A stretch of 64,000 nucleotides of DNA from an uncultured Pelagibacteraceae bacterium. Lineage in GTDB: Bacteria; Pseudomonadota; Alphaproteobacteria; Pelagibacterales; Pelagibacteraceae. A program made the translations under genes and the position numbers. Shown here piece after piece: positions 9,190 to 50,803 of this stretch (position 1 is its first letter; the number at the start of each line of letters is the position of its first letter). The stretch is taken from positions 98,884 to 162,883 of the forward strand of contig CACMWQ010000002.1 of assembly GCA_902617415.1 (NCBI GenBank). Reading direction: 5' to 3'. Below the pieces are notes generated by a model that was given only the letters and a program-made list of their open reading frames with translations, had not been told where the DNA came from and searched no databases.

Positions 9190-9960
9190 TTAATTAATTT
9201 CATTTCTCAATTGTTCAATTTTAATTTTTTTTTGTAAACTTCTATTTTTATCAAACAACAAATTAAATTGTATTTTTTTATTGGTTTTGATTGATATTGA
9301 TTTCGCATTTCTAACTTCAATATTATCAGCGACAGCACTTATAGGTCTTTTCATAGGATTTAGATTCCTAATTATTATTTTAGATTTATCACTAACGATT
9401 TTTCCTTTCCATCTTCTAGGTCTAAATGCACTTATAGGGCTTATAGATAACTTATTCGAATCCATACTTAAAATTGGACCATGGACTGATAGATTATATG
9501 CTGTACTTCCAGCCGGTGTTGAAACTAATACACCATCAGAAATTAAATGTTTAATAATTTGTTTTTTTCCATTTGAGATAGATAATGATGCAGTTTGTCT
9601 GCTTTGTCTTAGAACTGATATTTCATTAATTGCTATTGATTTTTTAATAACATTAGATTTATTTTTTACACGCATCTCAAGTGGTGAAATTGAGACTAAT
9701 CTACCTTTAATTAAATTATCATAATTTGTTTTTTCTGAAAATTTATTCATTAAGAAACCATAGTTGCCAGAATTTATTCCATAAAAAGGTTTTCTGTATT
9801 TATTATACTTTTTCAACGTCTCAAGCATAAAACCATCTCCACCTATAACAATAATTAGATTACATTTTGTTAATGAATTTAATTTTATTCTTTTTAAAAT
9901 TTTATTTTTTATTTTTAATGATTTAGAATTTTTATCAAATACTATAAAAGGATTAACCAT
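9190..9960 (-). CDS. nadK: NAD kinase
   Basis: Contains the GGDGFML motif and NAD-kinase-like sequence. I trimmed the track ORF (9190-9999) to the Met at 9960 (MVNPFIVFDK) because its first 13 codons are read from the tRNA-Leu gene. Confidence 0.88.
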   Translation of the reverse strand: MVNPFIVFDKNSKSLKIKNKILKRIKLNSLTKCNLIIVIGGDGFMLETLKKYNKYRKPFYGINSGNYGFLMNKFSEKTNYDNLIKGRLVSISPLEMRVKNKSNVIKKSIAINEISVLRQSRQTASLSISNGKKQIIKHLISDGVLVSTPAGSTAYNLSVHGPILSMDSNKLSISPISAFRPRRWKGKIVSDKSKIIIRNLNPMKRPISAVADNIEVRNAKSISIKTNKKIQFNLLFDKNRSLQKKIKIEQLRNEIN

Positions 9961-9963
9961 TAA

Positions 9964-10049
9964 TGGTGCCCTCGGCCAGACTCGAACCGGCACTCCCAAA
10001 AGGGCAAGGATTTTAAGTCCTTTGTGTCTACCAATTTCACCACGAGGGC
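9964..10049 (-). tRNA. tRNA-Leu (anticodon TAA), intact host copy A
   Basis: Reverse complement reads GCCCTCGTGGTGAAATTGGTAGACACAAAGGACTTAAAATCCTTGCCCTTTTGGGAGTGCCGGTTCGAGTCTGGCCGAGGGCACCA. It is 86 nt with a long variable arm and anticodon loop CTTAAAA. Confidence 0.92.
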
Positions 10050-10100
10050 TTTTAAATATTTTCTCATTATTAATAATCTATATAACATTAAATAAAAATA

Positions 10101-10799
10101 ATGAAAAAAATTTTGATAGGAACTGCTACTTATAATGAAGTAACTAATATAGAAATACTAATCAATAAAATAAATAATCTTGAATTAAATTTAGACATTA
10201 TTATAGTTGATGATAGTTCACCTGACGGTACCAGCAAAAAAATAAAAGAATTAAAAACAAAATTCTCAAATATAATTCTAATCAAGAGAAAAAATAAAAC
10301 TGGTTTAGATACAGCTCATAAATTAATTTTTAAGTATGCAAATCATAATAAATATAGGTATTTAATAACGCTAGATGCTGATCTTTCTCATGATCCAGGA
10401 TTGATAAAAGTTTTTTTAAAAAAAATAAAAAATTATGACACTGTATTAGGATCTAGATACATTAAAGGTGGAAAAAATGAATTAACAGGTTGGAGGTTTT
10501 TAATTAGTAAATATGGAAATTTAATAATTAAAAAAATTTTAAATTCTAAACTAAATGAATTTACAACTTCTTATAGATGTTTTGATCTAAAAAAATTAAA
10601 AAATTTTAATCTAAAAAAGGTAAAAGCAAAGGGATATAGTTTTTTTATGAATACAGTTTATTTATTAGAAAAGAATAATTACAATATCAAAGAAATACCT
10701 ATTAAATTTCACCAAAGGAAAAAAGGGAAATCTAAAATACCTAAAATTGAAATTTTTAGAACAATATTAAACTTATTTATAATAAAATTTAAAGACTAG
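10101..10799 (+). CDS. GT2 polyprenol-phosphate glycosyltransferase (Dpm1/GtrB/ArnC-like)
   Basis: 232 aa with IIIVDDSSPDGT, TLDADLSHDP and VLGSRYIKGG blocks, characteristic of dolichol/undecaprenol-phosphate sugar synthases. Confidence 0.85.
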   Translation: MKKILIGTATYNEVTNIEILINKINNLELNLDIIIVDDSSPDGTSKKIKELKTKFSNIILIKRKNKTGLDTAHKLIFKYANHNKYRYLITLDADLSHDPGLIKVFLKKIKNYDTVLGSRYIKGGKNELTGWRFLISKYGNLIIKKILNSKLNEFTTSYRCFDLKKLKNFNLKKVKAKGYSFFMNTVYLLEKNNYNIKEIPIKFHQRKKGKSKIPKIEIFRTILNLFIIKFKD

Positions 10800-11958
10800 T
10801 TTTTAAAAGATTTGGTGATTGTATTTTTGAATTTAATAAAAATAAATAAATCAACATTATAAAATTAATTAATAAATCTATACTTGATGGAACAATTACT
10901 TCTTGCTTAAAATAGATCATCTTTAAATATTCAATAAACCTTATTCCATACCAAAAATAAAAAATTATTAATATTGAGATAATTGATCTTTTAAAATTTA
11001 AATTTTTAAAATTATAGATTAATGTAGGTAATAGAACTATATAATCATAAATAAGATGGCCGAATATCATCAGATTTGAGATGCACATTAAATTTAAAAA
11101 TAATATTGGATCGGTTATTTTTGAAATTTTTTTTCCAAAAAATAAGGAAACTAAAATTACAATTAAAATCAAAAAATAAGTATGATTTTTACTTGCTTTA
11201 AAAAAATTAAAATTACTTAATATTGAATATAAATCTCCCCTAGTCAAAGTATCATCAAAACCTTTTAATCCAGCATATAGAGGTTGAAATATTGTTGTGA
11301 TTATATTTTGATCTAAATAAATCGAAAATATGATCCAACCGATGGTACAGAATAGTCCAGAAATAATTAGACTTTTAAACCCATCTTTAAAAAAAATAGC
11401 AAAAGCCAACAAAGGCATAAAGCTATATTTCATATAAGAAAATCCATAAAAAAAGTTTCGAAGATATTTATGTTTAATAAAAACTGAACAAAAACAAAGC
11501 AAGATTAATAAACTTGTCTGTCCATTTCCTATGCAATTTCTAAATGGAGTTGAAAGAAAAAATAGTGAAATAATTATAAGAATGTATTTTTTATCTATTT
11601 TACAATAACTGCCTATGATTATCCCTACAATTGTTCCAATTGAAAGATTTATTAAACTCCAGATTAATCGTGATATTTCATAATCAAAAAAACTAAAAAA
11701 ATAAAAAAAGATGTAGGTTGCGTGCGAGTAAACAGGGTATTGAGCTCCAATAATTCTGTCTAAATTATTGTTGTATAAAAAATATTCATACGGATTAACT
11801 TTTTCTTTGAAAAGCAACGTTGGGCTGTATTGAAAATCCATACTTCCATAAGTATTTGCTATATATAAAGCGTAGAATGCAGATAAAATCCCTAAAGATA
11901 AAATAAAAAATAAAATTATTTTATTTTTTAAAAAACTCAATTTATTAAGTTTTTCCAT
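10789..11958 (-). CDS. Polytopic membrane protein, putative GT-C-type glycosyltransferase
   Basis: 389 aa with many hydrophobic segments along its whole length. It is convergent with, and overlaps by 11 nt, the GT2 lipid-sugar synthase gene. The functional call comes from architecture and partnership only. Confidence 0.5.
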   Translation of the reverse strand: MEKLNKLSFLKNKIILFFILSLGILSAFYALYIANTYGSMDFQYSPTLLFKEKVNPYEYFLYNNNLDRIIGAQYPVYSHATYIFFYFFSFFDYEISRLIWSLINLSIGTIVGIIIGSYCKIDKKYILIIISLFFLSTPFRNCIGNGQTSLLILLCFCSVFIKHKYLRNFFYGFSYMKYSFMPLLAFAIFFKDGFKSLIISGLFCTIGWIIFSIYLDQNIITTIFQPLYAGLKGFDDTLTRGDLYSILSNFNFFKASKNHTYFLILIVILVSLFFGKKISKITDPILFLNLMCISNLMIFGHLIYDYIVLLPTLIYNFKNLNFKRSIISILIIFYFWYGIRFIEYLKMIYFKQEVIVPSSIDLLINFIMLIYLFLLNSKIQSPNLLKTSL

Positions 11959-11974
11959 TAAATAAATTAATTAG

Positions 11975-12030
11975 TGGTGCCCTCGGCCAGACTCGAACTG
12001 GCACTCCCAAAAGGGCAAGGATTTTAAGTC
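11975..12030 (-). pseudogene. 3' 56 nt of a second tRNA-Leu(UAA) gene (copy B), severed in the anticodon loop; left prophage junction
   Basis: It matches 55 of the 56 bases at 9964-10019 (single C/T difference in the T-stem). The match ends at TTTTAAGTC (12022-12030), which is the anticodon loop read on the plus strand. Confidence 0.9.
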
Positions 12031-12134: not shown

Positions 12135-13172
12135 CTAACTTTTACCTCCAGAAACAACTTTTAAATTGTTATGAAGGTTATCCAACTTCTTAGCTAAATC
12201 AATCTTAGCTTTAGGAAAGAAATGAATATATCTTTTTGCCATTGGTGAATTGTAAGACCAACCCATCCAATCGCAAACTTCCATATACGTTGCACCAGCT
12301 TCAGCAAGTCTTGATGCACAAGTATGTCTACATGAATGAAAGATGAAGTCTTTATTTTCTGACTGACCAAGAGCATGCCTAACCATATCCCATTTGTAGG
12401 TTATCTTTCTGTAGCTAGTGTCAAAGTAAGTCTTCATGTTACTTCTTCTCATAAGTATTTCTTTAGTTCTTGCAGTAATACCAACTGATGAAGTTGTGTC
12501 TGTTTTACTTCTATACACATAGCTAGTCCAACCATACTGAGACTTCAGCATGTCTTTAGGTGCAAGTTTAATTAACTCGTTAGCACGAGCACCAGTATCT
12601 ATTAGTACAGTTACAAAATCTTCTAAGTCGTTAAACCCATAGGTTCTGCACTGTTGATAAATAGCTTCCTCTTGTTCGTAACTATATGTAAACAGTCTTG
12701 TTAGCTTTTCTTTTTTTCTAGGTATTTTAAGTAAATGCTTTGGAGCTAAACCCATTCCAAGAGCATATCTAAACACCTTGTTTAAGCAACAAGCCCTTCT
12801 GTTGTTAGTTGCTGTATCCTCAAACTGAGCCGCAAACTTATACCACTCAGCTTTATCTATTTCTCTAAGCAACTTATCTTTACCCCAGAAATTGTAGAAC
12901 ATAGTAAAATAATACTTTTGTTTTTTACCATGGTCTGTATCTAACCAACCACTTTCTGGGTCGTTCCATGTAGCTTCACAAGCTTGTTGTAAAGTTACTT
13001 CTGACCTACTGATAGTAAGACCAATTTCTTTACCATCAATAAGTGCTTTCTTTAGTTTGTCTTCAGCAAGAACAGCTTCATCATAAGTATTAACAGTGCA
13101 ACCTTTTCTGCCTCTGCCTTTTACTTGTATCTGAACTCTGAACTTACCATTACTTGTCTTTTGTATACCCAT
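12135..13172 (-). CDS. int: Tyrosine recombinase / phage integrase
   Basis: Catalytic blocks TGARANEL (Arg), HSCRHTCASRL (His-x-x-Arg) and AKRYIH (Tyr). I trimmed the start to ATG 13172 (MGIQKTSNGKFRVQ), which is preceded by AGGAGG 9 nt upstream. The gene is adjacent to the att junction. Confidence 0.93.
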   Translation of the reverse strand: MGIQKTSNGKFRVQIQVKGRGRKGCTVNTYDEAVLAEDKLKKALIDGKEIGLTISRSEVTLQQACEATWNDPESGWLDTDHGKKQKYYFTMFYNFWGKDKLLREIDKAEWYKFAAQFEDTATNNRRACCLNKVFRYALGMGLAPKHLLKIPRKKEKLTRLFTYSYEQEEAIYQQCRTYGFNDLEDFVTVLIDTGARANELIKLAPKDMLKSQYGWTSYVYRSKTDTTSSVGITARTKEILMRRSNMKTYFDTSYRKITYKWDMVRHALGQSENKDFIFHSCRHTCASRLAEAGATYMEVCDWMGWSYNSPMAKRYIHFFPKAKIDLAKKLDNLHNNLKVVSGGKS

Positions 13173-13173
13173 T

Positions 13174-13521
13174 TTATATAGCCTCCTTTGCTTTAGGTAT
13201 GTCATTGAATAGGCTCTTAAATTTATGTCCAACAGTAGTAAGAATAATATCTTTTTGTCTTCTATCTTCACTGCTTTCAGATAATTTAATGAGACCTAAG
13301 TTTACTAATACTGCATTGTTTCTCGATAGAGACGCAGAATTTAACAGCTTGCCATACAATTCATAAAATTTTTTATTTGTATTTTCTACTGTTAATGTTC
13401 CCTCTTTCAGATGACACATGCAGTGAAATAACATCAAGGTATGTAGGTATAACCCATTGTCCATATTCTTATTTTTACCCAACTTATAGAACCTTGACGC
13501 AACTTCTCCGAAGTTACTCAT
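13174..13521 (-). CDS. MarR-like winged-helix DNA-binding protein (candidate lysogeny regulator or recombination directionality factor)
   Basis: 115 aa from ATG 13521, which has AAGGAG 7 nt upstream. SASLSRNNAVLVNLGLIKLSESSEDRRQKDIILTTVG fits the MarR recognition helix plus DRR wing. Its stop lies 1 nt before the int ATG. Confidence 0.55.
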   Translation of the reverse strand: MSNFGEVASRFYKLGKNKNMDNGLYLHTLMLFHCMCHLKEGTLTVENTNKKFYELYGKLLNSASLSRNNAVLVNLGLIKLSESSEDRRQKDIILTTVGHKFKSLFNDIPKAKEAI

Positions 13522-16587: not shown

Positions 16588-16734
16588 CTAGCGTATTTAA
16601 GAACGCTAGCGTAGCAATAGCATAAGAACGCTAGCGTAGTCAATATATAAAATAATTATTTTTTTCTATAGGTAAATTAATAGATGTATTACTATTAATT
16701 TATAATCATTCTAAACTGTGAACGCTGGCGTAGC
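16588..16734. repeat. Cluster of ACGCTAGCGT palindromes (candidate operators) upstream of ardA
   Basis: Perfect ACGCTAGCGT occurs at 16603-16612 and 16628-16637, inside a 16-nt direct repeat AAGAACGCTAGCGTAG (16599-16614 and 16624-16639). A half-site CTAGCGTA lies at 16588-16595 and the variant GAACGCTGGCGTAGC at 16720-16734. Confidence 0.55.
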
Positions 16735-17490: not shown

Positions 17491-17503
17491 ATCTATAGTG
17501 TCC
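17491..17503 (-). promoter_or_regulatory. Candidate phage-RNAP promoter GGACACTATAGAT (position analogous to T7 phiOR)
   Basis: The minus strand reads AATACATGGACACTATAGATAG. GACACTATAG is identical to the -9..+1 portion of the SP6 promoter consensus. It lies just after the TerL stop. Confidence 0.5.
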
Positions 17504-22982: not shown

Positions 22983-24326
22983 TTATTGATTTAGATTTTT
23001 AGTACACCAAGCTAAATAACCAGTTGGTGGTTGATATTTGAAAGTTCCAAAACCTTCACTGTCTGTGTAAGTAGTGCCTGTTAATTGCGTGTTTGCAAAT
23101 GCACCATTACCAAAATTAAATTCTGTTCTGTTATCATTATTACTTACTGAATACCAATTTACTGAAGGTGTTATCCAATGACCTCTTGATTTTTTAACAC
23201 TACAATTTGTAAAGCCTGATAAACTTAAAGCATTTACATTAGATATAACTGTTCCATTTTTATAAGCTGTAACAGTATCACCATCAATATCTATGGCCAT
23301 ACCTATATAGTCACCAGTTGTAAAAGTTGTACCTAACGCAGTAGCATTAGGGTCGTATGCGTTAACACCATTAACACCACCTCTTATATATCCATCTGTT
23401 GAAATATTAAATCCACTATAATAAGTATCAGCACCATTTCTAGGATTATCAGCACTATCCCAACCTAGTCTTATGGGTCTACCAGATGTAGTAGCTTGAA
23501 TATAAGCCTCATAATACCATTTACCACTTTTAGCCGCTAAACCTGCATTTGCTCTCATCCAAGCAGAACCATTGCCTCTTACTCTAGTATTAGCGTAATC
23601 TATATCAAGAGTTCCACTGCCAAAACTTTGCAAAGGATTTATAGTTGCAAAATTATTAGAAGGATTATCTTTTGTTGATGTAAGTGTACCTGTATCAACT
23701 GCCCAGTTATTTGTATTAGGTGATTGGTCTGTTAATGAATTGCTATCTTTTAAAATGAAAAAACCATTGTTTCCATAGGTAACACTAGGACTAGCATTTA
23801 TTTTCCACTCACCAGTTGTTGCATCAGTAGAACCAAATGATGATGCTTGATAAGTATAACCATCTGTAAAGTGTATATGGCTCATACATCCATCAAATTG
23901 ATTACCACCTCCATTATCACCAATGTAGTGAGCAACTGCACTGTTCATAGAATTTGTTACATCTTGTGAAGCATGAGTTGCAGTATCAAAATTTGTAACT
24001 CTTGTGCCATTTACATAAATTTTAATCCTATCTGAATTTGTGCCTAAGGTGCTATCATAAGCGAAAACAATGTGCATCCACGCATTACTATCTCTATAAA
24101 CAGCACTTGTTTCATACTGCCATATCATAGAGCCACTATTTAAATAAAAGAAATAAAGTTTATTATTACTATTAAATCTAAAAGTTACATTTACTGAACC
24201 TGCATTATTTGCATTAAATAATACTTGGTCACCACCAAGTTTTGCTCTTTTTACCCAAGCACTCCAAGTAAATTTTTTTCCGTCTGTTGGTGTTCCTAAA
24301 GTTTTTAATAATCTTGTACCAGCCAT
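22983..24326 (-). CDS. Receptor-binding-like protein with LamG and SPRY domains
   Basis: 447 aa. The LamG-like block is FTWSAWVKRA...WMHIVFAYDS...IKIYVNGTRV. The SPRY-like block is SGKWYYEAYIQ...IRLGWDS...GDYIGMAIDIDGDTVTAYKNG. Confidence 0.6.
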   Translation of the reverse strand: MAGTRLLKTLGTPTDGKKFTWSAWVKRAKLGGDQVLFNANNAGSVNVTFRFNSNNKLYFFYLNSGSMIWQYETSAVYRDSNAWMHIVFAYDSTLGTNSDRIKIYVNGTRVTNFDTATHASQDVTNSMNSAVAHYIGDNGGGNQFDGCMSHIHFTDGYTYQASSFGSTDATTGEWKINASPSVTYGNNGFFILKDSNSLTDQSPNTNNWAVDTGTLTSTKDNPSNNFATINPLQSFGSGTLDIDYANTRVRGNGSAWMRANAGLAAKSGKWYYEAYIQATTSGRPIRLGWDSADNPRNGADTYYSGFNISTDGYIRGGVNGVNAYDPNATALGTTFTTGDYIGMAIDIDGDTVTAYKNGTVISNVNALSLSGFTNCSVKKSRGHWITPSVNWYSVSNNDNRTEFNFGNGAFANTQLTGTTYTDSEGFGTFKYQPPTGYLAWCTKNLNQ

Positions 24327-26644
24327 TAGTTAAATTGTCCTCCTCCTGACGCACCGAAGCTAGATGTTAAGCTAAATGCTCTATCTGCTGTTTGACCTTC
24401 GGCATCAGTTATTCTTACTGTAAAGTTATAAGTGGTAGCTGTTGTTGATGAGCCACCGAAATCTGTTGTTGTTAATGCTCCTGCTGAAGTTAATGTTACA
24501 TTAGCTCCACTTAAATTAGAGGTTACTTCTGAAAATGTAATTGCACTGTCTGAAGAACCTTGAATTGTAAATAAAGTACCAGAAAAATTTCCTGCAAAAG
24601 TTCCTAATGAACCTGCGGCTGTACTAAAGGATGGAGCTGTTGATGCAGTAATAATATTATTAGTACTTCTTCCTGCGTTACCATCAGGATTTTCTACTCT
24701 TACATGATAGTTACCTGATGCTAATGTTACATTGACTGATAAAGTTGTAGCATTAGTAAATGAGACTGTATTTGCTCTTGTAACAGAACCATCTGTTTTT
24801 ATAAAATCTACTTGTGGTATTGATACAAAATTAGTTCCTGTAATATTTATTGTCGTAGCTGTTGCAGGTGCAATAGTTTGCGATACATTAGCTACTGTTG
24901 GTTTTGTTTCTGTTGCATCTATAAAACTTAATACACCAGAACCATTAGTTGCCAATACCTGTCCATTTGTTCCTGTATTTGTAGGTAATGTAAATGTTAA
25001 GTTACCTGCGTAGCTTGCATGGCTAGGACTTTTTATAGCCGCATAATGCGAGTTTTGAGAACACCGCAACCTGATTTCACCATCAGCAGAAGACCCATCA
25101 CCTTTTACTTCTAATACTGGTGAAGGCAGTCTGTCATTATTAATTGTACCTGATGTAATATTAGCGGCACTAAAACTAGATAACTGGAAGGTGCCATAGC
25201 TAACCACTTGTAAAATATCGTTAAGCGTAGCTCCAGAACCCAGGACTATGCTTGTACCATTTGTTGCTGTAAAATCTGAAGTATCTAATTTTACACCATT
25301 TAAATAAATATCAGCAAATGCAGTTCCGCCAGCAACATCATAAGTTAATGTATTACCATTAGCATCACTTCCTGAGAATGTTGTCTGACCTGCTGTTGCA
25401 GTAAATTTAAACCTCTGGCTGGTACCATTCACACTGCTCCCTGCCAACTGGTACGAGCTTCCATCAAAGACTTTTAGTTTCTGAGCATTTGTATCGAATA
25501 CCAAATCTCCGACATCATTACTTGATGAAGGTACTCCTGATTGAACTCTGTATCTTTCAGCAAAACTATTTACTCCAGATAAATTTGTAGCAACTGTATT
25601 AATATTTGTTAATCCACCTGCTACTGAATTTATATTTGTAATAGCTCCAGCAACATTATTTATGTTTGTTGAATTATTATTTACAGTTGTAATAGCAGTG
25701 TTCATACCTGCTACTGTAGTTATGTTTGAAGATATACCAGCAACAGTATTAATATTTGAGCTATTAGAATTGACAGCATTTATATTTGTAGAGTTACCTG
25801 CAACTGCATTTATATTTGTAGAGTTGGCATTAACTGCATTAATATTAGTTGAATTATTATTTACTGCTGTAATTGCAGAAGATATTCCTGCTACTGTATT
25901 TATATCAGATATATTAGTTCCAACTGTATTTACATTAGCAATGCTTCCTGCAACTACATCAATTTCAGAACTTGCTTCATTTAAATCATCAGCAACAGTT
26001 TCTATTTCTGATACTGCTTCATTTAAATCATCAGCAACTTTTTGTACGTCTGCAATGTTTGTAGCAACTGTATTAACATTAGCTATATTTGTAGCTACTG
26101 TATTTATGTTAGTAGAGTTACTATTTACTGAATTAATATTGCTTAAATTATTTGCAACTGTAGTAATGTTAGCGGCTATACCTGCAACAGTATTTATGTT
26201 TGGTAAGTTTGTAGATATGAATTGTTTATTGACTGCATCTTTATTATCTACTGGGTCTGCAACATTTACTATTCTTTTGTTTAGTGCATCAAATCTATCA
26301 GAAGTATCCAAGCCCATTTTGCCATCAACATTATCTGCTGTTTCTTGAGCTAAGAAAAAGTTCTGGTCTGCTGACTGGTCTAAGTCTGATGATGTTAATA
26401 CACTACCATCCTGGAAATCAACTAACCTAGCATTTGAAGGTGTAGTTCTCTGTATGAGTACTACAGCTCCATTTGCTGGCGTTGATGACAATTGAACTGA
26501 AGATGCCGAAGGAAATGTAATGTTAGTATCTTCTGTACCATTTACAAAAGCTTTTACATGGCTTTGTAAAATGTATGGGAATGAAAACGAAAACGTATTC
26601 GTACTACCATTAGCAGTATACGTCACACGAGCATTAAACGACAT
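24326..26644 (-). CDS. Tail fibre (T7 gp17-like N-terminal adaptor, heptad-repeat shaft, IPT-like C-terminal region)
   Basis: 772 aa. The N-terminus MSFNARVTYTANGSTNTFSFSFPYI...LVDFQDGSVLTSSDLD resembles the gp17 tail-attachment domain. About 30 xNINTVA-type heptads follow. The C-terminal block VNVTLASGNYHVRVENPDGNAG is Ig/IPT-like. Confidence 0.8.
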   Translation of the reverse strand: MSFNARVTYTANGSTNTFSFSFPYILQSHVKAFVNGTEDTNITFPSASSVQLSSTPANGAVVLIQRTTPSNARLVDFQDGSVLTSSDLDQSADQNFFLAQETADNVDGKMGLDTSDRFDALNKRIVNVADPVDNKDAVNKQFISTNLPNINTVAGIAANITTVANNLSNINSVNSNSTNINTVATNIANVNTVATNIADVQKVADDLNEAVSEIETVADDLNEASSEIDVVAGSIANVNTVGTNISDINTVAGISSAITAVNNNSTNINAVNANSTNINAVAGNSTNINAVNSNSSNINTVAGISSNITTVAGMNTAITTVNNNSTNINNVAGAITNINSVAGGLTNINTVATNLSGVNSFAERYRVQSGVPSSSNDVGDLVFDTNAQKLKVFDGSSYQLAGSSVNGTSQRFKFTATAGQTTFSGSDANGNTLTYDVAGGTAFADIYLNGVKLDTSDFTATNGTSIVLGSGATLNDILQVVSYGTFQLSSFSAANITSGTINNDRLPSPVLEVKGDGSSADGEIRLRCSQNSHYAAIKSPSHASYAGNLTFTLPTNTGTNGQVLATNGSGVLSFIDATETKPTVANVSQTIAPATATTINITGTNFVSIPQVDFIKTDGSVTRANTVSFTNATTLSVNVTLASGNYHVRVENPDGNAGRSTNNIITASTAPSFSTAAGSLGTFAGNFSGTLFTIQGSSDSAITFSEVTSNLSGANVTLTSAGALTTTDFGGSSTTATTYNFTVRITDAEGQTADRAFSLTSSFGASGGGQFN

Positions 26645-26651
26645 TTCTTAT

Positions 26652-26664
26652 ATCTAAAGTGTCC
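26652..26664 (-). promoter_or_regulatory. Candidate phage-RNAP promoter GGACACTTTAGAT (position analogous to T7 phi17)
   Basis: The minus strand reads CAGAACAGGACACTTTAGATATAAGAAATG. The motif ends 7 nt before the tail-fibre ATG. Confidence 0.5.
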
Positions 26665-40882: not shown

Positions 40883-40895
40883 ATCTAAAGTGTCC
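40883..40895 (-). promoter_or_regulatory. Candidate phage-RNAP promoter GGACACTTTAGAT (position analogous to T7 phi6.5)
   Basis: The minus strand reads ACAAAAGGACACTTTAGATATATG. The motif ends 2 nt before the ATG at 40880. Confidence 0.5.
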
Positions 40896-42626: not shown

Positions 42627-42712
42627 GCCCTTGTGGTGAAATCGGTAGACACATTGGACTTAAAATCCAAGCCCTTTTGGGAGTGCCAGTTCGAGTCTGG
42701 CCAAGGGCACCA
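42627..42712 (+). tRNA. Phage-encoded tRNA-Leu (anticodon TAA), complete, opposite strand to all phage CDS
   Basis: GCCCTTGTGGTGAAATCGGTAGACACATTGGACTTAAAATCCAAGCCCTTTTGGGAGTGCCAGTTCGAGTCTGGCCAAGGGCACCA. It is 86 nt, the same length as host copy A. It differs at 8 positions; 6 form 3 compensatory base-pair swaps, one converts a G-U pair to A-U, and one lies in the D-loop. Confidence 0.9.
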
Positions 42713-47846: not shown

Positions 47847-47857
47847 CTATAGTGTCC
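47845..47857 (-). promoter_or_regulatory. Candidate phage-RNAP promoter GGACACTATAGAT (position analogous to T7 phi2.5)
   Basis: The minus strand reads GATACTAGGACACTATAGATG. The ATG of the SSB gene starts directly after the TATAG. Confidence 0.5.
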
Positions 47858-47863
47858 TAGTAT

Positions 47864-47877
47864 CTACGCTAGCGTAG
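47864..47877. repeat. Perfect 14-bp palindrome CTACGCTAGCGTAG (candidate operator) abutting the SSB promoter motif
   Basis: The sequence is its own reverse complement. ACGCTAGCGTAGTCAAT (47866-47882) is identical to 16628-16644. Confidence 0.55.
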
Positions 47878-47881
47878 TCAA

Positions 47882-49615
47882 TTAGCTACAAAAATAATAA
47901 CTACCAAGGACATTCTTCAACTCCAGGCTTCCTTGCTCAGGTAATGCAGGTATTTTATGTCTTAAATGTTTAGGTATCTGATATTCAACTTCCTTAAGAA
48001 AATCCTCAAGTAAATTTTTTCCATCAAATATTTCTACAAATGCTTCACGCAATGCAATGTTCATTGTTGAAACATCTGTTGCTAAACATCCAAAGCTATC
48101 ATGCACACAAGCAAAGTTTTCTATATTGTAATCACTAGCTTTGCACACAGCCTTTTGTAATAAAGCACCATCAAGTGAATGCACAAAGTTTGGTGCAATA
48201 CTATTTGCTACTCTACGTTTATCTATTTTATTTGTCTCAACAGCTATAGATGTTTTTCTTATATCAGGTGTCCACTTACCAGTCTTAGGTCTAAATATTT
48301 TTTCACCCATATAAGTATTAACTCTTTTAGTTTCTAATACTGGACATACCATTTGCACTATAGCATTTGTTGGTGTTGTCCACACAACAGGTAAACCATT
48401 TTCAGAAATTAATTTAGATACATCTTGCAACCATTTCATTGCAACCTTTGCAGATTTAATAACTCTATCTAAAGCTTTCCATACTAACTTAGATAAGTAT
48501 GCAGTACCTTTAAATATATTAGGAACTCCAGGCTTAGGATTTCTGTCAGTAGAAAAAGGTATATCAACACCTTCTTCTTCCATTTCTTCTAAGTGTTCCT
48601 GGATATATTTTCTACAAGAGAATTGTGTAAGACCATATACAATACACATTGTAACTTTCTTACAGGTTTTTCTAGTAATACCATAGTCTAACCATATCTC
48701 TTTTAACAAACTATCTTCTTGTTCTTTTAATAGGTTTTCAGTTTCTACTGCAACTTCACCATACACATCAGCAACTCTATTACCTGGTACAAGATTAACT
48801 GCATTACCACCTACTTCATCTCTTAATAAACCAGAGAATATTTGTAGGCCTGAGTTAGTACAATCAGAATAACAAATAACATTAGTTACAAAATTAAGAG
48901 ACTTGCCTGATTTACAGAAGTCGTTCCATTCAAAACAGAATGCAAGAAACTGTACTGGTTCAGAACAATTAGCCCAAAATTCATAATGACTATGTGGGTC
49001 TTCTGCTGTTGCACATATAGCTTCTTCATTATCTACAACCCATTTAACTCTATTATCTAATGTATCTTTATCATGGCCATACATATTAGCTCCATGAATA
49101 GATAACTTTCTTACAGCTCCATAACCTTCAATTGGTTTACCATTAGCAAATAATAATAAACCTTTTGCTAAATCACATTCTTGATAGTTAAGTCCTTCAG
49201 GTACACAATATATTCTTTGTCTATTGTCATACTGTAATGGAAAATAAAACTCTAAAAAATTTTCATAAGTATCTGCAACAGAAAATATTTTTTCTATATG
49301 TAAAAACTTACTGTCAATTGTAGAGTTGTAATCATGGACTGACCTTTTTCTATGACTGTATTGTTTTCTTGCTTCTTCATTAGTAGCAATATCGTGTGGT
49401 TTAATTGGGAGCTCCAGCTTGTATGGCGGCAACCCTGCAATAGGTAACTTCTTATGATACAAAGTCTTCATTACCTGTAGCGTTCTTGTATTTATTTTAA
49501 ATGGAGTATTCTGTAATGTATTAATACACTTATAATACTCTGGCATTTCGTGTGCTCTGTTTGCCATTTCTTCTAGGTAAGCCCTAGTTGCTCTTTTGAC
49601 TATTGGATAGTTCAT
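47882..49615 (-). CDS. Single-subunit RNA polymerase, C-terminal fragment (thumb-palm-fingers; T7 RNAP residues about 299 to the end)
   Basis: 577 aa. YPIVKRATRAYL...MPEYYKCINTLQNTPFKIN aligns to T7 LALVRTHSKKAL...MPEVYKAINIAQNTAWKIN. DCTNSGLQIFSGLLRDEVGGNAVNL, ITRKTCKKVTMCIVYG and VHDSFG are catalytic blocks. It has its own GAGG SD 7 nt upstream of the ATG. Confidence 0.9.
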   Translation of the reverse strand: MNYPIVKRATRAYLEEMANRAHEMPEYYKCINTLQNTPFKINTRTLQVMKTLYHKKLPIAGLPPYKLELPIKPHDIATNEEARKQYSHRKRSVHDYNSTIDSKFLHIEKIFSVADTYENFLEFYFPLQYDNRQRIYCVPEGLNYQECDLAKGLLLFANGKPIEGYGAVRKLSIHGANMYGHDKDTLDNRVKWVVDNEEAICATAEDPHSHYEFWANCSEPVQFLAFCFEWNDFCKSGKSLNFVTNVICYSDCTNSGLQIFSGLLRDEVGGNAVNLVPGNRVADVYGEVAVETENLLKEQEDSLLKEIWLDYGITRKTCKKVTMCIVYGLTQFSCRKYIQEHLEEMEEEGVDIPFSTDRNPKPGVPNIFKGTAYLSKLVWKALDRVIKSAKVAMKWLQDVSKLISENGLPVVWTTPTNAIVQMVCPVLETKRVNTYMGEKIFRPKTGKWTPDIRKTSIAVETNKIDKRRVANSIAPNFVHSLDGALLQKAVCKASDYNIENFACVHDSFGCLATDVSTMNIALREAFVEIFDGKNLLEDFLKEVEYQIPKHLRHKIPALPEQGSLELKNVLGSYYFCS

Positions 49616-50591
49616 TATTTACCTCATTTGTTTGTGTTGATTGTTTAGTAGGTTCTCCTAAAGTGGCACCTAATTCAGCAGGTCTTAAATCCTTGATATA
49701 ATAACCACCAGAATATGGGTTCAGTTCCCATTCTTTCGGTTTAACAACCATAGGTTCTCTAAAAGGTTTTAAAATTTCTGCATGAATTTTTTTCTTCTCA
49801 ATCCAGTCAATAGTTTTTTGTGTAGCCTGGACATAGACAATTGACTTGCCTTTTACTGCATATTGTTTTGTGAGTTTTATAAAGCCAGTGGACTTGGCTA
49901 ATAGTTCAAGAAGTAGTTTACCAAGTTTAACCTTTTCTTCTTTAGACCAACCTGAGTATTCCAGGCTATGTTTATTCATAGCATAATTAAATACTCTACG
50001 TTTATGTCTGTAGTTATTCTTAGTCTTTAACCATTCTTTTGTTTGGGAATAAGTTCGATTATCTGTCTCTTTGAAATATAATAATCTAGCCTCATCTTCA
50101 ATTGCTGATGCTATTTTAAGCACAGCTTTTGTTTGTGTGGATGAAACAGTGATACTATCAAGCACAGCTTTTAATGTTATGAATGCTATACCTGACCACC
50201 TCTCTGAATTATCCTTATCTACTTCCTGAATAGGAATACACTTAGTTAATAACTTAGCTTCGCTTGCAAATCTTTTAGTATGACCATCAAATGCTTCTAT
50301 AAAATATTTATTTATAGCTTCACACATAGGCTCTAATCCTGACTGCATTAGTGCCTGACCATAGATAGTTGTACTTTCATTGGTCTCTCTTGGCTTACCA
50401 GTTTTCTCTGCAATTTTTGCTCTGGATTTGTATATATTTTTATGGAACCTTTTTATGCCACGTTTGATGTTGTTAAGTTCCAGTTGTTTTTCAGCCTCTA
50501 TTTTATTGTGTAGAGTTGAAGGCTTGTCGTGCACACTCTTGTCATTTTTAAGTATGCCAAATTTCTCTAGTATTGACTTATCTATTTCCAT
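49584..50591 (-). CDS. Single-subunit RNA polymerase, N-terminal-domain fragment
   Basis: 335 aa. PMVVKPKEWELNPYSGGYYIKDLRP aligns to T7 PMLIPPKPWTGITGGGYWANGRRP. A 31-aa hydrophilic tail without a T7 counterpart follows, then the stop. GAGG SD 4 nt upstream of the ATG. Confidence 0.85.
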   Translation of the reverse strand: MEIDKSILEKFGILKNDKSVHDKPSTLHNKIEAEKQLELNNIKRGIKRFHKNIYKSRAKIAEKTGKPRETNESTTIYGQALMQSGLEPMCEAINKYFIEAFDGHTKRFASEAKLLTKCIPIQEVDKDNSERWSGIAFITLKAVLDSITVSSTQTKAVLKIASAIEDEARLLYFKETDNRTYSQTKEWLKTKNNYRHKRRVFNYAMNKHSLEYSGWSKEEKVKLGKLLLELLAKSTGFIKLTKQYAVKGKSIVYVQATQKTIDWIEKKKIHAEILKPFREPMVVKPKEWELNPYSGGYYIKDLRPAELGATLGEPTKQSTQTNEVNNELSNSQKSN

Positions 50592-50628
50592 AGTACCTCA
50601 TTAATGTTTATTTTTTGTTCGTAGTTTC

Positions 50629-50646
50629 TGTGCACGCATGTGCACG
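50629..50646 (+). repeat. Two TGTGCACG repeats in the attR-side phage arm
   Basis: Copies at 50629-50636 and 50639-50646, spaced 10 bp. They belong to the same TGTGCA family as 12090-12125 and 17086-17099. Confidence 0.45.
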
Positions 50647-50651
50647 TCTAC

Positions 50652-50732
50652 TACGCCAGCGTAACGAACACATTTAATGTTCGCAACAGTTTAATTCGCT
50701 AGTAATGTAAGGTATTCTACTACGCTAGTGTA
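50652..50732. repeat. Two degenerate copies of the TACGCTAGCGTA palindrome upstream of the RNAP gene
   Basis: TACGCCAGCGTA at 50652-50663 and TACGCTAGTGTA at 50721-50732, each with one mismatch. A CGAACA/TGTTCG inverted repeat lies between them. Confidence 0.45.
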
Positions 50733-50764
50733 GATTTATCGGAGGCGTAGAATGTGTCGATAGT

Positions 50765-50803
50765 TTTTAAGTCCTTTGTGTCTACCAATTTCACCACGAG
50801 GGC
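50765..50803 (-). pseudogene. 5' 39 nt of tRNA-Leu(UAA) copy B; right prophage junction
   Basis: Identical (39 of 39) to 10011-10049 of copy A. It starts with the core TTTTAAGTC (50765-50773). The adjacent phage DNA has no T-arm or acceptor sequence. Confidence 0.9.

Follow-up and report, generated by a model that had tools for sequence, protein, structure and literature searches.

The integrated T7-like phage element that takes up ~40.7 kb of the 64,000-nucleotide (nt) stretch analyzed here (the window; positions 98,884 to 162,883 of contig CACMWQ010000002.1, assembly GCA_902617415.1, from an uncultured Pelagibacteraceae bacterium) encodes its RNA polymerase (RNAP) not as one polypeptide but as two, in a pair of open reading frames (ORFs) on the minus strand that correspond to the N- and C-terminal parts of T7 RNAP. 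We interpret the pair as the outcome of an ancient, tolerated gene fission that gave rise to a translationally coupled two-subunit T7-type RNAP, and assign to this interpretation a probability of roughly 0.85. The split was described in an earlier note, made from the sequence of the window without database searches. Fragmentation of this gene was reported first by Chen et al. (2019, mSystems, PMC6811365), so that the phenomenon is already known, both from the literature since 2019 and from GenBank annotations, while the enzyme is biochemically uncharacterised; the value of the case lies in biochemical follow-up and not in discovery.

Both ORFs were recovered at the coordinates and with the lengths given in the earlier note (Table 1), and all of the catalytic blocks are in the C ORF. 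The N ORF matches the Pfam family RPOL_N (PF14700) above cutoff (E=2.5e-11) and its alignment covers T7 residues 112-299, including the region aligned to the intercalating (promoter-melting) hairpin. The C ORF matches RNA_pol (PF00940, E=6.5e-84), aligns to T7 residues 312-879 (E=2e-80) and encodes, besides the thumb, palm and fingers, the final ~30 residues of the canonical N-terminal domain and every catalytic motif, with SDCTNSGLQ aligned to T7 FDGSCSGIQ (D537), VHDSFG to IHDSFG (D812) and RKTCKKVTMCIVYG to T7 RSVTKRSVMTLAYG (K631, Y639). Residues D251, K319, Y327, H505 and D506 are invariant in homologues of the C piece. The polymerase domain of the T7-like family is present, including the catalytic Asp of motifs A and C as well as Lys and Tyr in motif B, and so is the N-terminal promoter-binding domain, which is recognized by Pfam, by alignment to T7 and by a fold match; what is missing is the single polypeptide, since the locus consists of two ORFs that differ in frame and have separate starts. 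The RNAP pair is homologous to the T7-like single-subunit family, yet it is not single-subunit.

Table 1. Features of the two-ORF RNAP locus and of the ends of the integrated element (window coordinates)
Feature	Coordinates	Strand	Basis or remarks
N-subunit gene, 335 amino acids (aa)	49584-50591	-	ORF; homologous to T7 RNAP N-terminal domain; Pfam RPOL_N
C-subunit gene, 577 aa	47882-49615	-	ORF; Pfam RNA_pol; AlphaFold 2 (AF2) model; dN/dS
N-subunit residues 270-304, ending ILKPFREPMVVKPKEWELNPYSGGYYIKDLRP	49680-49784	-	conserved; predicted disordered alone
31-residue hydrophilic N-subunit tail	49587-49679	-	without T7 counterpart; carries C-gene ribosome-binding site
Shine-Dalgarno (SD) core GAGG, 6 nt 5' of C-subunit ATG	49622-49625	-	
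32-nt overlap of N-gene end and C-gene start; probable translational-coupling junction	49584-49615	-	
173-nt region from attR to N-gene start; possible regulatory region	50592-50764	-	two CTACGCTAGCGTAG-like palindromes
attR, 39-nt exact direct repeat, 5' half of tRNA-Leu(TAA)	50765-50803		partner at 10011-10049
Tyrosine integrase, at the element end opposite RNAP	12135-13271		

The N ORF continues beyond GGYYIKDLRP through the tail, whose 31 hydrophilic residues indeed have no T7 counterpart, to a TAG at 49584-49586, and the C ORF, in the +1 frame relative to it, opens with an ATG at 49613-49615. Along the minus strand (junction sequence caaatGAGGtaaataATG; longer stretch caaatGAGGtaaataATGaac) the order is GAGG (49625-49622), TAA (49621-49619), ATA and ATG (49615-49613), with the TAA in the C frame, two codons upstream of the start. 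The overlap, the TAA and the GAGG had all been described correctly except that the spacing of the last is 6 nt and not 7. Neither a sigma-70-like promoter nor an intrinsic terminator was found on the coding strand between the two cistrons.

The split is a property of the lineage. All of the 61 homologues of the N piece that we retrieved from ENA, JGI, Logan, NCBI and Tara stand alone (234-385 aa, 47-100% identity), with no full-length protein among them, and homologues of the C piece at 53% identity or above are likewise all stand-alone proteins containing PF00940 only, 555-584 aa long apart from a few truncated entries; at or below 44% identity most matches combine the two domains in one fused protein of ~750-880 aa. 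The RNAP is split in 84 of 84 related loci in which both pieces are available (79 IMG/VR contigs carrying the C-piece region together with KT997847, HTVC041P, Gjalp, S30C28 and HTVC025P), and the alignment of the C piece starts from its residue 1 in every one of them. Two RNAP coding sequences are annotated in GenBank for KT997847, HTVC025P, HTVC041P, Gjalp, Eyrgjafa (the same two) and MedDCM-OCT-S30-C28, and HTVC025P, HTVC041P, Gjalp and Eyrgjafa are cultured, propagating isolates. An independent ENA metagenome scaffold has a junction identical to that of the window, an IMG/VR contig of 93-95% identity shows the same two-ORF arrangement, and the nearest named relative is Chosvirus KM23C739, with 55-56% identity in both pieces. 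Scanning of GTDB species genomes gave no match to the N piece and, for the C piece, only a 743-nt fragment, 79% identical, in a Pelagibacter single-cell genome. Pseudomonas phage Oiolarie was considered as a second case of a split, its match falling within an RNAP feature as well as an endonuclease VII feature, and was rejected, as it has a single RNAP ORF and an unrelated upstream gene.

Initiation signals at the start of the C piece are conserved. Among 51 distinct junctions the start codon is ATG, with GTG in two, the protein begins MHYN in relatives and MNYP here, and an SD core (GGAG, GAGG or AGGA) is located 4-18 nt upstream in 50, to be compared with 13 of 32 other prophage ORF starts. 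The proposal that the second ORF has initiation signals of its own is thereby upheld, start codon and split point being conserved throughout. The geometry of the junction varies, by contrast, with an 11-nt overlap in 26 cases, a 1-nt overlap with a +2 frame offset in 8, a 1-nt gap in 8, and, more rarely, overlaps of 20, 29 or 32 nt, a 5-nt gap and, in HTVC025P, a 497-nt gap; lineages differ in the frame offset from N to C, which is either +1 or +2, and in many loci a stop codon immediately precedes the ATG in the C frame. In most relatives the N ORF ends at a TAA inside ATGCACTATAA, the usual N-piece ending '...AL*' being an overlap with this sequence. Here ATGCACTATAA is replaced by ATGAACTATCC and the TAA is lost, so that the N ORF extends 21 nt further, and the final seven residues of the tail, SNSQKSN, are a lineage-specific out-of-frame read-through of the C-gene start region, without significance. 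Taken together the signals point to independent initiation of the C cistron, and because in most lineages the stop of the first cistron overlaps or adjoins the start of the second, translation of the two is probably coupled. In HTVC025P (MH598799.1, 1758-2254) the spacer that separates the RNAP halves holds two small ORFs (48 and 85 aa) for which Pfam gave no significant match.

The ratio of nonsynonymous to synonymous substitution (dN/dS), from pairwise Nei-Gojobori estimates against 11 relatives with the C piece taken outside the overlap, is 0.08-0.15 for the N core (304 codons) and 0.13-0.21 for the C piece, and both halves are functional genes under purifying selection; this is the comparison that the earlier note had suggested. 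Over 21 codons of the tail, in contrast, the proportions of nonsynonymous and synonymous differences are about equal (pN ~ pS). Tail length ranges from 0 to 31 aa with a variable, hydrophilic composition, and the tail is almost wholly lacking in the deeper relatives, Chosvirus KM23C739 and its allies. The tail is a linker under weak constraint, within which the ribosome-binding site lies. Of the two features whose conservation had been at issue in the earlier note, then, the split holds in all 84 loci, whereas the 31-aa tail is absent or different in deeper relatives.

Where the split falls in terms of T7 RNAP follows from alignments. The N piece aligns to T7 as far as P293, residue 23 of the C piece pairs with T7 Y312 and in fused relatives MHYNLVK lies opposite T7 ~292-298, which together place the split at T7 ~290-294. 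The N-terminal domain of T7 RNAP comprises residues 1-325, with the thumb starting at 326 (PMC5524818), and the RPOL_N match of the N ORF stops at profile position 295 of 334. The split is therefore ~30 residues inside the canonical N-terminal domain and not, as had been claimed, exactly at its boundary (325/326). Fused homologues have a short segment of variable length at this position, and the closest of them hold ~8-10 residues where the ORF pair has a start codon, an SD sequence and the tail. Random bisection of T7 RNAP has identified permissive seams at 67-74, 160-206, 301-302, 564-607 and 763-770 (Segall-Shapiro et al. 2014, supplementary figure S3, PMC4299498), and the natural split is ~8-10 residues from the third of these.

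Structure models add to this picture. The AF2 model of the C piece, based on 43 aligned sequences, is that of a confidently predicted stand-alone protein (mean predicted local distance difference test score, pLDDT, 91.7; predicted template modelling score, pTM, 0.87) whose first 55 residues form helices packed on the body. The model of the N piece has a mean pLDDT of 66.8; it matches T7 RNAP structures, and its core, residues ~27-274, is mostly at 70-89, while residues 269-335 are mostly below 50, with 10-residue block means of 29-52. Within this part block means are 40-52 over 271-310, most of 269-298 lies below 50 and the tail is at ~30. Residues 270-304 align to T7 ~258-293, and L274, K275, P276, P280, G295, G296 and Y297 are invariant among 47 homologues. 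We infer from the model that residues 270-304 would fold only against the C subunit, acting as a docking segment.

In a neighbour-joining tree of the RNAP C region the split forms make up one clade with the fused forms outside, with the exception of HTVC011P, whose fused RNAP nests in the split Stopavirus/Fussvirus branch. In this phage (KC465900.1, 2390-2440) a vestigial internal start, ATGCACTACAAT, is kept, the old start at the DNA level being AATGCACTACAATCTA; the SD sequence is degraded (CCAAAGGATATAATC compared with CCAGAGGAGATAGCA), and a 1-nt gap ~27 nt downstream of the old start joins the N frame to the C frame. With the old start kept, the SD degraded and a gap of a single nucleotide, the HTVC011P ORF seems to have been re-fused secondarily; a possible alternative is an error of sequencing in the 2013 record. 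Re-fusion agrees with the listing of HTVC011P by Chen et al. as the only unsplit member of group III. The earlier note had named, as the outcome that would count against it, relatives that all have a single continuous ORF; the relatives are split, and HTVC011P is the only exception in the clade.

These observations are brought together in the following model. In a clade of temperate SAR11 podoviruses (HTVC019Pvirus group III; relatives of Chosvirus, Fussvirus and Stopavirus) the RNAP gene would have undergone one ancient fission, in the loop equivalent to T7 ~290-294. The two cistrons, which are adjacent and probably co-transcribed, would each be translated from a start of their own, the C cistron from its ATG and an SD sequence within the poorly conserved tail of the N ORF, and the products would join non-covalently as a two-subunit enzyme. 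The N subunit would be a mobile promoter-binding and promoter-melting module, held on the polymerase body by the docking segment at ~270-304, and the C subunit an autonomously folding polymerase core that supplies the specificity loop and the catalytic residues. A split at this site would be tolerated because it is a variable surface loop beside the T7 301-302 seam, where engineered bisection keeps activity, and since evidence for an adaptive or regulatory role was not found we take neutral, tolerated fission as the default. Several points weigh against the model. That the two polypeptides associate and transcribe is something that we infer; the 301-302 seam is near, not at, the natural split; the neighbour-joining tree is without bootstrap support; and HTVC011P, a viable cultured relative, has a single ORF, so that the split is not obligatory in the clade.

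Other explanations for a pair of ORFs such as this must, of course, be considered. Two adjacent out-of-frame halves, viewed in isolation, resemble a frameshift, and the earlier note had allowed for a fresh inactivating lesion in a decaying prophage or for an indel introduced in sequencing or assembly. Such an origin is refuted by the same split point in 84 informative loci from many projects and in cultured phages, the identical junction on an independent scaffold, the strong purifying selection on both halves, the ~8-10 residues that the closest fused homologues hold in place of the start codon, SD and tail, and the read-level check of Chen et al., who did not see any unsplit reads in a related phage. 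Programmed ribosomal frameshifting within the overlap, leading to one full-length RNAP, would fit the 32-nt overlap and the +1 frame relation in the window, but neither a conserved frame relation nor a conserved slippery site was found across the junctions. It is the ATG and the SD that are conserved, the offsets are both +1 and +2, the cistrons are separated by 1 nt at eight junctions, by 5 nt at one and by a 497-nt spacer in HTVC025P, and many loci have a stop in the C frame directly ahead of the ATG. That the start signal is conserved while the frame relation is not excludes frameshifting as we see it, and we consider it highly improbable.

A different possibility is that the split serves as an adaptive control point, for lysis-lysogeny or for the early-to-late switch, either because the N subunit is dissociable and sigma-like or because the levels of the two subunits are set separately. 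The N piece does hold the promoter-melting-hairpin region, the C piece folds autonomously in the model, the split has been kept across deep divergence and a CACTWTAG core, shared with the candidate phage promoter described below, occurs in the tail-coding region at 7 of 51 distinct junctions. Yet Zhao et al. compared 13 HTVC019Pvirus pelagiphages, of which 12 have an integrase, while the gene is fragmented only in group III. The unsplit group I and II phages are thus integrase-bearing as well, and the split does not track lysogeny; the control point tied to a temperate lifestyle that the earlier note had put forward is not supported. Moreover, adjacent and mostly overlapping cistrons favour a fixed stoichiometry, HTVC011P is viable with a re-fused gene, and the internal CACTWTAG, which departs from the intergenic motif in 5 positions out of 14, is explicable by common codons. 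A control function of this sort is unlikely in our view. Quite unlikely, too, is the more specific proposal that the N module is a separable sigma-like subunit that recognizes and melts the promoter and is then released or exchanged after escape, or is supplied at a different level; if true it would amount to a regulatory layer for abundant ocean phages that is absent from single-chain phage RNAPs. The ancient, tolerated fission into two coupled subunits remains the reading that we favour.

The element has features of HTVC019Pvirus group III, with the RNAP in two parts at the same position and the same integrase/attP/tRNA-Leu layout. It shares with these phages the split point, the gene order int - att - RNAP-N - RNAP-C - SSB (the protein that binds single-stranded DNA) - endonuclease I, integration at tRNA-Leu, a phage-borne tRNA-Leu, a tyrosine integrase and an attP between integrase and RNAP, but the prophage lineage differs in having lost the usual TAA and in its overlap of 32 nt instead of 11 nt, and the tRNA anticodon is TAA here compared with TAG reported for HTVC011P and HTVC025P. 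Chen et al. described the RNAP genes of group III pelagiphages, HTVC011P excepted, as 'fragmented into two parts', reported a fragmented RNAP gene in a Fonsibacter phage as well, and judged from the lack of unsplit reads in a related phage that the interruption was not recent (PMC6811365). Their account of the split is a single paragraph without mapping, selection analysis or mechanism. We found no other published discussion of it beyond that paper; a preprint by Zhao et al. on pelagiphage integration does not mention the RNAP split, the 'two parts' in its text being those of a tRNA.

Engineered split T7 RNAPs (PMC4299498) also consist of two fragments, and active enzyme is reconstituted there from stop-RBS-start junctions (RBS, ribosome-binding site). 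The natural split differs in that it evolved, is fixed in a clade, lies near a seam and has no added dimerisation domains. A natural two-part enzyme of the T7-like family is RNAPII of phage N4, a biochemically proven heterodimer of gp15 and gp16 that requires the cofactor gp2 (Willis et al. 2002; review PMC4496689) and whose subunits align, as do those described here, to non-overlapping parts of T7 RNAP. Its N-terminal domain is truncated and its split, located after the thumb and DX2GR motif (gp15), separates these from palm and fingers (gp16) (PMC4496689), unlike the present RNAP, where the C piece holds both the thumb and DNRQR (its residues 130-134), the equivalent of DX2GR, and the N piece covers T7 112-299. 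N4 RNAPII is a precedent of independent origin, a different event in the family. In T4-like phages DNA polymerase or ribonucleotide reductase is split by homing-endonuclease insertion, so that an essential enzyme is again encoded by two adjacent cistrons, whose pieces reassemble; unlike those cases there is no mobile element at the junction here, the only spacer being that of HTVC025P. A mobile-element origin of the split was considered; the ORFs in this spacer give no significant Pfam match. The halves of a split intein, ~100 aa and ~35 aa, flank the split with a nucleophile at +1. Trans-splicing by a split intein was rejected for the present pair, in which there is no Pfam intein domain, the N tail is a variable 0-31 aa and the C piece aligns directly to fused homologues.

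Textbooks present T7 RNAP as the single-subunit polymerase, and much effort in synthetic biology goes into splitting it; this clade shows that a two-piece version became fixed in nature long ago, in phages that infect the most abundant bacteria of the ocean and near one of the five seams from random bisection. An evolved split pair with a native interface would provide a test of how the mobile N module is kept on the core in going from initiation to elongation. There is also a warning for annotation, in that such ORF pairs should not be flagged as frameshift errors or pseudogenes.

Four intergenic copies of a motif, GGACACTWTAGAT, are found on the coding (minus) strand (17493-17503, 26654-26664, 40885-40895 and 47847-47857), and the motif is a candidate promoter for the phage RNAP; its core, CACTATAG, is identical to T7 promoter positions -7 to +1. 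As one copy directly adjoins the start codon of SSB, a transcript from it would have almost no leader. Within the tail-coding region of the N subunit, CCACTTTAGGAG at 49654-49668 (minus strand) shares the CACTWTAG core of this candidate promoter. An internal phage promoter at this site (CCACTWTAGGAG) was considered and rejected, as its codons (ACT TTA/ATA GGA) are common and its match to the intergenic motif is poor; the internal CACTWTAG is probably a coincidence of codon usage. A CTACGCTAGCGTAG-like palindrome is present in five copies in the window where 0.02 are expected by chance, with locations at 16601-16639, 47864-47877, 50651-50664 and 50720-50733. The 173 nt that separate attR from the start of the RNAP hold two of them, and another is found immediately upstream of the motif resembling a promoter ahead of the SSB gene. 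The palindrome is possibly an operator or a hairpin element.

The RNAP genes are at one end of the integrated element, which is bounded by the att repeats listed in Table 1, and are followed by T7-like genes for SSB, endonuclease I, primase-helicase, DNA polymerase and terminase. Host sequence flanks the element, with EF-Tu and tRNAs on one side and an oxidoreductase, AzlC and SfsA on the other. In HTVC019P-type pelagiphages attP is located between integrase and RNAP (Zhao et al. preprint), and the layout of the element agrees with theirs. A full tRNA-Leu(TAA) is found at 9964-10049 and a 97%-identical copy of its 3' half at 11970-12030, beside the integrase; between the two copies are genes for a GtrB-like glycosyltransferase (10101-10799, plus strand) and a GT87-like protein (10789-11958, minus strand). 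The region 9959-12030 is one of two things, cargo of the prophage that modifies the surface or an islet of its own that integrated in tandem at this same tRNA. A phage-borne tRNA-Leu(TAA), identical to the host copy at 78 of 86 positions, is located at 42627-42712, in the interval separating the DNA polymerase gene from the gene next to it, on the plus strand, opposite to the phage genes. Similar phage tRNAs have been reported to replace host tRNAs disrupted by integration. Finally, imperfect repeats with a 30-nt (10-codon) period at 25557-26197, within a 772-aa ORF of the tail region (24326-26644), probably encode a repetitive fibre or β-helix segment.

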